Shown here: in pieces, positions 17,589-20,480 of the stretch
Position numbering within the stretch: the stretch's first letter is position 1
Layout of the letters: each line of letters opens with the position of its first letter
Origin: a virus
Virus genome (UHGV): UHGV-0267347
Length of the DNA stretch: 27,205 nt
Reading direction: 5' to 3' (one strand)
Notes under the pieces: model-generated
Database searches by the model: none
What the model was told of the DNA's origin: nothing
Seen by the model: the letters and a program-made list of their open reading frames with translations, nothing else
Position numbers and translations under genes: made by a program

Positions 17589-17686
17589 GTAAAATCAATA
17601 ACGGCTGTAAATCATTCAATACTCGCCCTATCGGAAGTTCACCAGCCAACCGCAGCACGTTCTTGCATACGACGTGGCTGCGGTTT
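17589..17686 (+). repeat. 98-bp direct repeat, copy A (hairpin-containing)
   Basis: gtaaaatcaataacggctgtaaatcattcaatactcgccctatcggaagttcaccagccaaccgcagcacgttcttgcatacgacgtggctgcggttt; about 92% identical to copy B; contains imperfect inverted repeat cagcacgt...acgtg(g)ctg. Confidence 0.8.
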
Positions 17687-17784
17687 CAACTCCCGCCAAT
17701 CATGATTGAGCGATAGTAGAATAGTAATAACAAAAATTGGTAGTTATCAGGCTCAGCAAAACACCAATCGGGTGGTGAGGATAC

Positions 17785-17808
17785 AAAAAAGGCACCCGCA
17801 GGTGCCTT
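17785..17808 (-). terminator. intrinsic terminator (minus-strand sense)
   Basis: aggcacc-cgca-ggtgcct hairpin preceded by AAAAAA on the plus strand (stem + U6 for a leftward transcript). Confidence 0.45.
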
Positions 17809-17869
17809 AAATACTACCCCTTAGCAGCGCACTAAAAATGCCCACGCCTCGTACCCGTAATCATGAGCA

Positions 17870-17974
17870 TCAAGGACTTTTTTTGATTTCCCACGCACCT
17901 TGCGGTAACGGCAGAAAACCCAACGGAACCCTTTGGGCGCCGCTTTTGAAGCAATTGATTTCAAACCCATTCAT
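17870..17974 (-). CDS. candidate small ORF (34 aa) with canonical SD
   Basis: TAAGGAGGTG then 4 nt then ATG; MNGFEINCFKSGAQRVPLGFLPLPQGAWEIKKSP; lies between the ImmA-like gene and a terminator; not in the ORF track (below its size cut-off). Confidence 0.3.
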   Translation of the reverse strand: MNGFEINCFKSGAQRVPLGFLPLPQGAWEIKKSP

Positions 17975-18093
17975 AAAACACCTCCTTACCAAGAGAGATT
18001 TTTCCCTTGAACATCTTCCCTGAAGGTGTTAATTTCAGGCTGTCTATCGAAGCTGTTCACGGTGGTGATGCCTCTTGGATTCATCACCTAAAG

Positions 18094-18129
18094 CCCCTTG
18101 CACTGGTTGGCGCCAAGCAAGGGGTTTTT
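18094..18129 (+). terminator. intrinsic terminator hairpin (strong in plus sense) abutting the ImmA-like stop codon
   Basis: ccccttgc-(15 nt loop)-gcaagggg followed by TTTTT. Confidence 0.5.
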
Positions 18130-18649
18130 ACATTTTGTCTAGCTGATAACGCGCTGCCACTAATGAAACTCCGCATGCCTCAGCAACATCCTCAGCCGTC
18201 ATACCTTTTAAAATACTGGCATGCATAGCTGGCACTAATAACTCACCACTAAAACATTTAGCTTGCCATTCACTACTCTCAAAAGGGCGGATTTTTACCC
18301 CTGGGGCAGAACGAGCAAATGCGATGTTCCTGTGCATAAGAAGATGACCCAGTTCATGCGCGGCAGTCATCCTATCTCGCCCTACCCCATTCAAAGCGCC
18401 TTCGTAAATGTCTTCGCGCAGAATCAATAAATGTTCCTGTGGGTATGTAAGACCATGCGTCTCTCCCATTTCTTTCATACCACCAATGTGGAACTCAAAA
18501 TCCGGGATCAACTGAGGCAATGCGAACTCAATTACCTCCATTACAGGGAATTTAAGCCCAGTAATACCAAATGCGCTCCGCAGAGATCTGACGATAGAAC
18601 GTATTGATTCACGATTCTGCGGAGGTACACGATAATCTTGTCCGCTCAA
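18128..18649 (-). CDS. ImmA/IrrE-family zinc metallopeptidase (COG2856-like)
   Basis: HEXXH motif in AAHELGHLLMH; 173 aa; immediately downstream of an XRE HTH gene. Confidence 0.85.
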   Translation of the reverse strand: MSGQDYRVPPQNRESIRSIVRSLRSAFGITGLKFPVMEVIEFALPQLIPDFEFHIGGMKEMGETHGLTYPQEHLLILREDIYEGALNGVGRDRMTAAHELGHLLMHRNIAFARSAPGVKIRPFESSEWQAKCFSGELLVPAMHASILKGMTAEDVAEACGVSLVAARYQLDKM

Positions 18650-18657
18650 GCCGCCTC

Positions 18658-19017
18658 CTACTGCTGTTTTCGATTCAAAATCTGTCGTAAATTACGGAAG
18701 TCTTCTTCATTTAACTCATCAAAACTACGAGCGAACGCAATTGCGACTTCACGAGCGTGGCCATTCTTACCTGACAAGCTGATCTCTACTGACTGCTGAG
18801 AGTCACGAGCTGCACTGATAAGCTTTTCTTTTTGTTTTTCATCCGCATTAAAATAGCTAATGATGCTATCAAGCACGGGCTTAGTGACCGCCCTTTTACC
18901 AGTTTCGATCGCTGAAAGATAAGACGAGGTCATGCCCATAGCCTCAGCCATGCTTTTAAGCGTAAGCCCCAAGTCTATGCGCATTTTTCTTACTGTCTTA
19001 CCAAACGGCGTTAACAT
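18658..19017 (-). CDS. XRE-family HTH transcriptional regulator
   Basis: N-terminal HTH (KMRIDLGLTLKSMAEAMGMTSSYLSAIETGKR); 119 aa; paired with the metallopeptidase gene. Confidence 0.85.
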   Translation of the reverse strand: MLTPFGKTVRKMRIDLGLTLKSMAEAMGMTSSYLSAIETGKRAVTKPVLDSIISYFNADEKQKEKLISAARDSQQSVEISLSGKNGHAREVAIAFARSFDELNEEDFRNLRQILNRKQQ

Positions 19018-19197
19018 AGTTGCTTCTCCAGTGTGTCAAAGACCTTCAGTACTTCAGGTCTCATTTTAAGTTAACACTCCACAGACATGAAATCAACAAA
19101 ATTCTGTTAATTTTTTTATCTTGCTTAGTTTATGAGTTTACATCTTATGTTGATAGAACTGTTGGTTGGTGAAGAATCATGGGGAAATGAGTCGTAA

Positions 19198-19353
19198 TCT
19201 CTTGATATTTTATGGTATGGAGATGAGCGTCAAAGCTACCATAGCGATGATTTTCCTGTTACCTACACCGCAGATAAGGATTCTGCTAATGCTTTTGTTC
19301 AGGAGACTCTGAAAGATACCTGGGAGTCTGCTGACGAGTGGTTTGTTCATTAA
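19198..19353 (+). pseudogene. 3'-terminal remnant (51 codons, no start codon) of an unidentified gene
   Basis: Open frame bounded by an upstream stop, reading [51 protein letters not shown], protein-like composition, ending 8 bp before repeat copy B. Confidence 0.35.
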
Positions 19354-19360
19354 TTAATAC

Positions 19361-19458
19361 GTAAAATCGATAACGGCTGGAAATCATTCAATACTCGCAC
19401 TATCGAAAGTTCACCAGCCAGCCACAGCACGTTCTTGCATACAACGTGCCTGCGGTTT
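19361..19458 (+). repeat. 98-bp direct repeat, copy B
   Basis: gtaaaatcgataacggctggaaatcattcaatactcgcactatcgaaagttcaccagccagccacagcacgttcttgcatacaacgtgcctgcggttt, followed by a T-run. Confidence 0.8.
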
Positions 19459-19645
19459 TTGAGACCGGTCCGATCATCAAACGAAACATAAAATTAGCTC
19501 ACACTATGAGGAAAAGTATCTTTTTTACTATGTAAATTCAAAGGATTAGCCTCATTTACCCGATAGTTTTCTCAACACTACTGGTTGTGAGCCCTTGCAA
19601 TGTTCATTAATATACGTCTCACAAATAATTCATAGATATTGCAAA

Positions 19646-20419
19646 ATGGATATTACTGAGTTTCCTTCTGGAGTAATTGAACACCTTGGCTGGTATGTAT
19701 ACCGATTGATTGATCCGAGGGACGGAAGCACCTTCTATGTAGGGAAAGGCAAAGGTAACCGCGTATTTGCCCATATGCGCGGTGAAGTGGCAGCGGCTGA
19801 TGATGACGACTTACTGAGCAACAAGCTAAAGCAAATCAGAGAAATAAGATTAGCGGGACTTGAAGTTATCCATGTCATCCATCGACATGGAATGACTGAT
19901 GAAAAGACGGCGTACGAAGTTGAAGCAGCACTTATTGATGCCTACCCTGGGTTAACGAATATCATGAATGGTGCTGGCAGCAATGAATTCGGCGCCGCGC
20001 ATGTCAAAGAGTTGATAGCAACATATCAACCCGAAACCATAACATTTCATCATAAAGCATTAATGATTTCCGTTAACAGAAGTGCAAAGGATTCAGAGCT
20101 TTATGATGCGGTTCGATTTAGCTGGCGCATTAATGTCTCTCGCGCCAGCCAAGCAGAAGTCATTCTTGCTACTGTAAGGGGGATCGTTCGAGGGGTTTTC
20201 ATTGCTGATAAATGGCTCAAATCAACACGTGAAAATTTCCCTACGATGAAATACTGGGACGAGGATCCGGACTTTGAGGCAACACAAAGTTCTCGCTATG
20301 GTTTTGAAGGTCGAGAAGCCCCACCTGAAATAGCAAATCTTTATCTTGGAAAAAAAATACCAGATGAATTAAGAAAAAAAGGAGCTATGTCCCCGGTCCG
20401 TTACTCACCTAATTTTTGA
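19646..20419 (+). CDS. GIY-YIG nuclease-domain protein with ~170-aa C-terminal domain of unknown function
   Basis: N-terminal GIY-YIG signature ([29 protein letters not shown] ... [10 protein letters not shown]); start taken at ATG 19646 (ORF track starts at TTG 19595). Confidence 0.75.
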
Positions 20420-20439
20420 GTCTTTAAGTGATAAGCATA

Positions 20440-20480
20440 AACCGCAGCACGATCTTCTTGCATACGACGTGCTACGGTTT
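20440..20480 (+). repeat. direct repeat, partial copy C (hairpin core only)
   Basis: aaccgcagcacgatcttcttgcatacgacgtgctacggttt shares the 3' hairpin core of copies A and B; lies between the GIY-YIG stop and the pin stop. Confidence 0.7.

Follow-up and report, generated by a model that had tools for sequence, protein, structure and literature searches.

Does an immunity-type regulator pair that lies beside a nuclease gene in a prophage control that nuclease? The question is raised by the virus genome UHGV-0267347, of which we analysed a stretch of 27,205 nucleotides (the window). Between positions 17589 and 20480, a gene for a helix-turn-helix (HTH) protein and a gene for a HEXXH metallopeptidase diverge from a gene for a GIY-YIG nuclease, and an earlier note on this DNA had proposed that the three form one regulated defence or abortive-infection module. 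We consider it likely that they belong to two independent mobile modules standing side by side in a prophage cargo hotspot: the nuclease, which by its sequence is the single-gene system PD-T4-3/CMoRE, and a trio in which the pair is followed by a gene for a 49-aa protein predicted to be gated by a leader RNA. The open reading frames (ORFs) of the earlier note are all present where it had placed them (HTH gene 18658-19017 and peptidase gene 18128-18649, both on the minus strand, and the GIY-YIG gene). The two genes of the pair are separated by 8 nt, and 628 bp lie between the pair and the divergent nuclease gene. The 49-aa ORF, the structured leader and a DinI-like pseudogene remnant were absent from that note.

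The nuclease and its family

The PADLOC search that the earlier note had recommended for this region gave a full-length match of the PD-T4-3 model to the GIY-YIG protein (E=1.7e-140, profile 1-256/256). The protein is identical with PDB 9U75 at 255 of 257 positions (E=2.7e-173) and also matched 9U7U (E=2.8e-150). Pfam LEM-3_GIY-YIG covers residues 28-110 (3.6e-14), and in the alignment with 9U75 the GIYxY-YIG motif (Y17, Y19, Y31) and an acidic loop (AAADDDD) are the same in both proteins; around the motif the window protein has GW-Y17-V-Y19-RL...F-Y31-VGKG. Judged from these matches, the nuclease is PD-T4-3/CMoRE, a single-gene system that is already known, named, solved and characterised, although the earlier note did not recognise the combination as a named system (PMC9519451, PMC12923530). 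Its length had been given as 257-274 aa. Because the solved protein starts at the same Met, the 257-aa form beginning at ATG 19646 stands, and the 274-aa form beginning at TTG 19595 does not.

The PD-T4-3 family was first found by functional selection (PMC9519451, Vassallo et al. 2022) and is active in a native clinical isolate (10.1101/2024.12.20.629700). CMoRE is a type IV restriction enzyme which cuts the 5-hydroxymethylcytosine (5hmC)- and glucosyl-5hmC (5ghmC)-containing DNA of T-even phages; its C-terminal domain senses 5hmC/5ghmC and the acidic loop of its GIY-YIG domain is autoinhibitory (PMC12923530, Nat Commun 2026). This sensing domain is the C-terminal domain that the earlier note did not recognise. 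Clones of CMoRE from O157:H7 and APEC O1 defend against T-even phages from their native promoters, and 274 of 274 CMoRE systems are single-component (PMC12923530). From the 99% identical O157:H7 protein, the window allele is expected to cleave 5hmC/5ghmC DNA and to protect against T-even phages. Within this first module (19459-20420), CMoRE would sense 5hmC or glucosyl-5hmC via its C-terminal domain and cut via its GIY-YIG domain with no need of a partner, and the acidic loop would keep it off normal DNA. The proposal of an anti-phage nuclease is borne out by the identity with CMoRE; that of abortive infection is not, as CMoRE acts by direct type IV restriction.

The comparison of the site with e14, which carries mcrA beside pin, is sound as well: many E. 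coli genomes have the order CMoRE-pinE where an e14-like prophage ends. McrA, too, belongs to the modification-dependent (type IV) restriction enzymes. Since it is of the same functional class as CMoRE, one seems to have replaced the other at the prophage end.

Independent gene content of the two modules

Both modules were counted in 5,426 complete E. coli genomes. CMoRE was found in 838 of them and the HTH/peptidase cassette of the window in 13, and the two were adjacent in 5. Neither this trio nor a paralogous one stood beside CMoRE in 802 of the 838 CMoRE genomes (96%); one or the other adjoined it in 36 (4.3%). Without CMoRE, the trio was found before a 410-aa protein (L002), before a SLATT gene and a reverse transcriptase gene (L008), in L007 with an intact DinI gene on one side, a DinI remnant on the other and no further insert, and beside an integrase near yejO (L005, L006). 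CMoRE stood behind tRNA-Pro/DinI in L003 and behind an AraC gene in L107, with no ImmA gene in either, nor was there one at CMoRE in the O157:H7 genome L108. Its neighbours were wholly different among contexts (tRNA-Pro/DinI, AraC, pinE, tail-fibre genes, trios). No CMoRE homologue or DinI junction was found near the trio or the small ORF in 96 non-E. coli loci, and around four peptidase homologues (Klebsiella, Yersinia, Aeromonas and Pseudoalteromonas) there was no conserved neighbour other than the 49-aa ORF. The two modules are independent of each other in gene content.

The position of the predicted operator points the same way. A palindrome with the consensus TCAACA-N6-TGTTGA is conserved ahead of the HTH gene across E. 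coli, Klebsiella, Yersinia, Aeromonas and Pseudoalteromonas. The window contains one perfect copy (19093-19110), at a distance of about 75 bp to the start of the HTH gene and about 535 bp to that of CMoRE, and a search of the region upstream of CMoRE (19459-19645) gave no copy. Nothing that we found supports the claim that the pair regulates the nuclease, and several points speak against it: the operator is found only at the pair's own promoter, the DinI remnant and a repeat intervene, nearly all CMoRE loci are without the pair, the cloned CMoRE alleles acted alone from their own promoters, the sampled O157:H7 genome has no ImmA gene nearby, and the only partner conserved across genera is the small ORF. 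The pair is probably not wired to CMoRE and shares with it one insertion hotspot. SOS control through the DinI remnant was also considered and is unsupported, as no LexA box (CTGT-N8-ACAG, at most one mismatch) was found in 19018-19645.

A direct repeat pair of 103 nt, 91% identical (17584-17686 and 19356-19458), encloses the HTH/peptidase cassette and the DinI-like pseudogene remnant. Of the repeat-delimited array that the earlier note had described, what stands is this one pair of direct repeats bracketing the cassette; the nuclease gene lies outside it, and a pair is not an array. An intact DinI-like gene precedes a copy-A-type flank directly in L007 and L008. The breakpoints of the alternative architectures coincide with the repeat ends, so that the 103-nt repeat looks like a recombination anchor for cassette exchange. 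In CMoRE-only genomes the matches begin at window positions 19218-19316. A query containing the repeat gave partial matches in 4,248 of the E. coli genomes, at a median of 2 and a maximum of 9 places; it is apparently the 103-nt repeat itself that accounts for most of them. The adjacency of the two modules would follow from a shared site, the 3' flank of DinI-like genes, where cassettes exchange at this repeat. We also considered copy B as a strong terminator and ruled it out: its centroid fold (-13.7 kcal/mol, z = -0.46) is no better than that of shuffled sequence.

Other cargo was observed at the same junction. After the trio-DinI remnant-repeat junction, L002:8111-9343 encodes the 410-aa protein, for which no Pfam or PADLOC match was found, and L008:7987-10663 contains the SLATT-domain gene (split by IS1) and the reverse transcriptase gene. 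Both are candidates for alternative defence cargo.

Leader RNA and small protein of the trio

The earlier note had taken the pair for an Xre-HTH/ImmA-type pair, and the Pfam matches agree with this. The HTH protein matched HTH_31 (9e-11) and HTH_3 (2e-10), and the peptidase matched Peptidase_M78 (1.4e-9) as its sole Pfam domain. Seventeen homologues, with identities as low as 42%, all keep H98, E99 and H102 of the peptidase's HEXXH motif (H98-E99-L-G-H102) as well as E127. The matches to the PADLOC models capH and capP were weak. The capH model aligned with the HTH protein at 3.6e-10 over profile positions 4-97/103, hence a C-terminal extension, and capP aligned with the peptidase at 6e-11 over only positions 56-147 of 242, without a GAF domain. 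The same 173-aa peptidase is annotated in RefSeq, where the pair is an ordinary HTH/ImmA pair. In the loci examined the HTH gene always lies directly upstream of the peptidase gene.

The third gene of the trio is conserved with the pair. The 49-aa ORF begins about 157-165 nt downstream of the peptidase gene and is the sole constant neighbour in Klebsiella, Yersinia, Aeromonas and Pseudoalteromonas. By tblastn it was present in 20 of the first 20 loci that carry the pair (Enterobacterales, Aeromonas, Pseudoalteromonas), the flanks of which are unrelated. The small protein is 76-78% identical where the peptidase is 50-54% identical, and the substitutions in its ORF fall mostly on third codon positions (e.g. 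5/2/36). It has the core motif APxGFRWVFCRYRKVRGxSxKVLDAHDYGYEAWAFLVR and matches phrog_33859, a family with no function assigned in PHROG; no match was found in Pfam, PADLOC, PDB or by fold. AlphaFold2 predicted a small beta-sheet (predicted local distance difference test score 88.6). A possible likeness to integrase arm-type DNA-binding domains found no support. The next gene downstream, for a 156-aa protein, was rejected as a member of the trio operon, since it is separated from the trio by a terminator and repeat copy A and is missing beside the trio elsewhere (in L007, L005 and other genera).

A small ORF was also observed behind the paralogous pair (L105:4754-5950; also L004 and L106), which has a comparable operator and a hairpin past the stop of its peptidase gene; this ORF encodes 47 aa (MTIEKAVSEEYITIYRPFITVKGKRIFARQKGLAAFPIKIPASKYRG). 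BLASTP gave no alignment between the small protein of the window and this 47-aa ORF, and the likeness is by eye only.

A structured RNA precedes the small ORF. Alignment by sequence alone (MAFFT and RNAalifold on 32 divergent leaders) gave no structure, and covariance models were therefore used, together with slid and shuffled controls and an alignment-independent swap test. The first model, built from five sequences, found the leader directly 5' of the small ORF at 32 loci; the second found it at 38 loci, 13 of them outside the training set. In the alignment of 38 sequences, standard pairs fill 91.3% of the cells, as compared to 58% in shuffled and 41-45% in slid controls, and the covariation score is 0.711 versus 0.18 and 0.07-0.15, respectively. 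Because these alignments were fitted to the model, the pair counts are inflated and the absolute values optimistic. Thirty-two of the 38 leader pairs vary on both sides. At the Rfam gathering thresholds there was no match in the whole window, and there was none in 17971-18127 at E<=10.

The leader contains the ribosome-binding site of the small ORF. In helix P5, an invariant anti-Shine-Dalgarno strand (anti-SD; AUCUCU or AUCUCC) pairs with the GGAGGU ribosome-binding site. The loop of P2 is complementary to, and co-varies with, the anti-SD strand and the P5 loop, for example CCAAGAG:CUCUUGG in the window, GGGAAG:CUUCCC in Gilliamella and CCGGGAGGA:UCCUCCCGG in Methylothermaceae. In the swap test the mean energy of the loop/target duplex was -11.6 kcal/mol with the leader's own target, -7.2 kcal/mol with targets of other leaders and -5.3 kcal/mol with shuffled loops, and none of 20,000 permutations was as low. 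The contact of the P2 loop with the anti-SD strand may either open the ribosome-binding site or lock the fold.

Two further features of the leaders were observed. The P1 loop (window about 18103-18108; e.g. L061:3867-3890) reads CGCCAA in some taxa and the reverse complement TTGGCG in others (GAGCGCCAACTC versus GAGTTGGCGCTC), as if the P1 hairpin were used in either orientation or recognised as DNA. A different leader with the shared motif TAGTGGATTCC lies about 100-150 nt 5' of small ORFs that have a partner of about 194 or 250 aa (L048, L051, L054, L055, L063, L066, L067, L070, L082, L086 and L091). The covariance models do not detect it, and it is probably a second leader class.

The small ORF is not confined to HTH/peptidase pairs. 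A scan of one genome per species found it at 80 loci in many phyla. The gene directly upstream was an M78 peptidase gene with an HTH gene at 40 loci, a gene for a protein of about 194 aa with a weak integrase SAM-like match at 11, a gene for a protein of about 250 aa without Pfam match at 8, the gene for the ribonucleotide reductase large subunit at 5, and an nrdAB-yfaE operon (Pseudomonas, L098), a Cas3 gene and a STAND NTPase gene at one locus each. Five loci were other single cases and 8 had no upstream ORF that we could find. PADLOC gave no match for the small ORF or for the 194-aa, 250-aa, 410-aa and 158-aa neighbours. With its various partners, the unit of leader and small ORF ranges over Gamma- and Betaproteobacteria, Nitrospirae, Planctomycetota and other groups. 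Its association with nrdA or nrdAB-yfaE was seen in Competibacteraceae, Haemophilus and Pseudomonas, where it immediately follows these genes and no HTH or peptidase gene is present (L075:3807-4123, L090:3784-4129, L098:3850-4141; also L074 and L080), and the second covariance model detects the leader in these reductase-linked loci too. This suggests that leader and small ORF form the constant unit, which can stand behind different front ends, the HTH/ImmA pair among them. The linkage to the reductase hints at a tie to replication or DNA-damage physiology.

From these features a mechanism can be proposed for the second module (17789-19187, minus strand). The HTH protein would repress its own operon through TCAACA-N6-TGTTGA, and the peptidase, by analogy with ImmA/ImmR, CapP/CapH and IrrE/DdrO, would cleave the repressor when stress or infection is signalled. 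As output the module would deliver the 49-aa protein, its translation gated by the five-helix leader. In the proposed switch the ribosome-binding site is paired with the anti-SD strand, which could pair with the P2 loop instead. More broadly, the HTH/ImmA pair may be the front end of an undescribed, widespread module in which cis-regulatory RNA of a new class, either riboswitch-like or protein-responsive and with a co-varying loop that competes with the anti-SD strand or docks onto it, controls a new small effector linked to DNA damage or replication stress, or to phage defence, perhaps acting with cargo such as CMoRE. We put this forward tentatively, as a proposal whose prospects fall a little short of even.

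Other readings, neighbouring genes and known systems

Should the pair be a CapH/CapP-like damage or infection switch which drives the divergent GIY-YIG gene, the three genes would be one defence module. The divergent layout and the capH and capP matches fit this, and several other observations weigh against two independent modules. The window trio stands beside CMoRE in 5 of its 13 genomes, above chance co-occurrence, and the paralogous trio lies directly upstream of the DinI remnant, the repeat and CMoRE in 31 of 34 E. coli genomes. The SLATT and reverse transcriptase genes that follow the trio at one locus are defence-like and resemble the "regulator plus variable effector" pattern of CapH/CapP. 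A promoter-like site facing CMoRE (19150-19177, plus strand) lies beside the operator, the hairpin of repeat copy B is degraded so that read-through into CMoRE may be possible, and a study of NILS69 speculates that PD-T4-3 is repressed in its native host (10.1101/2024.12.20.629700). The paralogous pair is 41% (HTH) and 32% (peptidase) identical with that of the window. However, it is co-directional with CMoRE behind its own terminator (e.g. in strains H7 and S1-KEN-03-A), whereas the window pair is divergent. All paralogous copies are at least 99.1% identical, and the genomes that carry either trio-CMoRE block have it in copies that are at least 99% identical. Thus there were very few independent adjacency events, and the paralogous block is effectively one recent spread. 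When the 802 CMoRE genomes with no adjoining trio, the defence by CMoRE alone, the O157:H7 context without ImmA, the intervening DinI remnant and repeat, the lack of an operator upstream of CMoRE, the lack of CMoRE near the trio in other genera and the missing GAF domain are set against these points, a single module appears quite unlikely to us. For real regulatory cross-talk between the pair and CMoRE we see a small chance, to which the weak copy B hairpin and the promoter-like site contribute.

The trio by itself could be read in two other ways. RosmerTA systems consist of an ImmA-protease antitoxin, often with an HTH domain, and one of many unrelated toxins, either of which may be encoded first (Millman et al. 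2022; PMC10440598), and the trio might be a split toxin-antitoxin or abortive-infection system of this kind, with HTH protein and peptidase as RmrA and the 49-aa protein as a toxin released on infection. The peptidase matches 15 PADLOC RmrA models (best 2.4e-8) as well as the spr1629 repressor/antitoxin model of NCBIfam, the small ORF changes partners between several protein families, as is typical of toxin-antitoxin and defence modules, and the positions are those of prophage morons. The RmrA matches are nevertheless limited to the HEXXH core, the small ORF has no PADLOC match, and the small protein is soluble, basic and extremely conserved, as opposed to the fast-evolving RmrT toxins. Leader and small ORF also occur with no partner nearby and after housekeeping nrdAB, which is hard to square with the need for an antitoxin, and we regard this explanation as rather unlikely. 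The pair might also be an ImmR/ImmA-type master switch controlling lysogeny or excision of the surrounding prophage or island, since a single-domain M78 peptidase of about 170 aa follows an Xre repressor as in ImmR-ImmA, and the trio abuts an integrase gene in Yersinia and in some E. coli. Yet the prophage of the window has its own CI-like HTH and S24 repressor (10460-11086). The sites of the trio vary, moreover: beyond tail-fibre genes, between Bro-N and the Q antiterminator in a lambdoid early region, between two integrases and, in L007, inside the duplicated DinI flank of a lambdoid prophage, with the small ORF as sole constant neighbour. This role is very improbable. Two independent modules, CMoRE and the trio, remain the likely explanation.

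The features of the region are collected in Table 1. The CI-like repressor and the tyrosine integrase indicate that the window extends over a prophage which has a lysogeny switch of its own; the cargo array lies between integrase and pin.

Table 1. Positions of the two modules and of neighbouring genes in the window
Feature	Position	Strand	Basis
CMoRE/PD-T4-3 nuclease gene, 257 aa	19646-20419	+	PADLOC, PDB 9U75 alignment
CMoRE upstream region, presumed own promoter	19459-19645	+	inherited with CMoRE in all contexts examined; promoter position inferred
103-nt repeat copy B: DinI-like 3' flank, degraded terminator-like hairpin then UUUUU, cassette junction	19356-19458	+	repeat search, fold
DinI-like gene remnant, 3' part only, pseudogene	~19220-19353	+	RefSeq annotation of 99.3% identical stretch (L001, L002, L007, L008)
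Predicted operator TCAACA-N6-TGTTAA at HTH-operon promoter	19093-19110	.	cross-genus alignment
Xre-type HTH repressor, 119 aa, C-terminal extension, first trio gene	18658-19017	-	Pfam, PADLOC
M78 (ImmA-like) zinc metallopeptidase, 173 aa, TTG start	18128-18649	-	Pfam, invariant active-site residues
Structured leader RNA, 157 nt, helices P1 to P5	17971-18127	-	covariance models, covariation
49-aa basic beta-sheet protein, third trio gene	17821-17970	-	conservation, codon-type substitution
Intrinsic terminator ending trio operon	17789-17808	-	terminator scan; fold -15.7 kcal/mol, z = -3.3, then UUUUUU
103-nt repeat copy A: DinI-like 3' flank, intact hairpin	17584-17686	+	repeat search; fold -22 kcal/mol, z = -2.3
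156-aa protein, neighbouring cargo outside both modules	16963-17433	-	no Pfam, PADLOC, NCBIfam or PHROG match
472-aa PD-T7-1 homologue, neighbouring defence cargo	15440-16858	-	PADLOC PD-T7-1 2.8e-69, PD-T7-5 2.6e-35; phrog_8571
Pin-type serine DNA invertase, tail-fibre switch, prophage edge of cargo region	20480-21070	-	Pfam Resolvase 6.9e-50 and HTH_7; pinE in related genomes
CI-like repressor (HTH_3 and Peptidase_S24)	10460-11086	+	domain matches
Tyrosine integrase	13912-15075	+	

Three observations concern other parts of the window. The PD-T7-1 homologue has a divergent N-terminal stretch of about 110 residues, and the same gene is split by IS3 in strain 035152 (L001). Between repeat copy A and the trio terminator, 17704-17817 on the plus strand gave a sub-threshold match to the enterobacterial small RNA STnc130 of Rfam (29.7 bits versus a gathering threshold of 55, E=0.06). 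At 8856-8930, within a minus-strand ORF, units of about 15 nt (CAGATTTTGACGGGT-like) stand head to tail, forming four overlapping 30-nt copies at 15-nt spacing.

A useful negative comes from this locus: in a prophage cargo hotspot, closeness and divergence of genes are not enough for a regulatory unit, and the 103-nt DinI-flank repeat explains how such mosaics originate. The new part may be the trio, with a rare but phylogenetically broad small-protein family behind a co-varying leader, neither of which is in Pfam, PADLOC or Rfam. The partners of the small protein, ImmA-type switches and ribonucleotide reductase, point to DNA-damage or replication stress. If the proposal is true, the leader would be a new class of cis-regulatory RNA and the small protein the first defined output for one family of orphan prophage Xre/ImmA modules.

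Among known systems, CMoRE of the window is closest to the crystallised O157:H7 enzyme, from which it differs by two conservative substitutions (Q/K and N/H; 99% identical). It shares with known CMoRE the C-terminal sensing domain and a prophage-end site beside pinE or tail-fibre genes, and unlike all but about 4% of E. coli CMoRE loci it adjoins an HTH/ImmA trio. Its likeness to McrA of e14 is one of position and function, with no relationship in sequence or fold: McrA is an HNH enzyme and CMoRE a GIY-YIG enzyme with a novel sensor domain.

The pair resembles CapH/CapP (Lau et al. 2022) and IrrE/DdrO in having an Xre-HTH repressor with a C-terminal extension, an adjoining M78 HEXXH peptidase and a palindromic operator at the promoter. 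In CapP an N-terminal M78 domain is followed by a central HTH and, at the C-terminus, by a GAF domain; its peptidase and GAF domains form a groove that binds single-stranded DNA, as in IrrE (PMC13228613). The 173-aa peptidase of the window is without this central HTH and GAF architecture. Its operator is found at the pair's own promoter, whereas the repressor site of CapH/CapP is at the promoter of the regulated immune operon, and the window pair has no conserved neighbouring immune operon. The trio has a conserved leader RNA and small ORF downstream, with which CapH/CapP has not been described.

As in ImmR/ImmA of ICEBs1, an operon on a mobile element encodes an Xre repressor and, immediately behind it, a short single-domain ImmA-type peptidase; autoregulation is predicted here. 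Unlike ImmR/ImmA, the pair is, on the genomic evidence, unlinked to int/xis or to induction of the element, it is found at moron sites of several unrelated prophages, and a 49-aa protein behind an RNA switch seems to be its output. RosmerTA is similar in that an ImmA-protease with HTH has a small partner which swaps between families and is prophage-borne. It differs in that HTH and protease are separate genes in the window, and in that the partner has no RmrT match, is predicted to be leader-gated, is more conserved than its own partners and occurs also after nrdAB operons with no peptidase.

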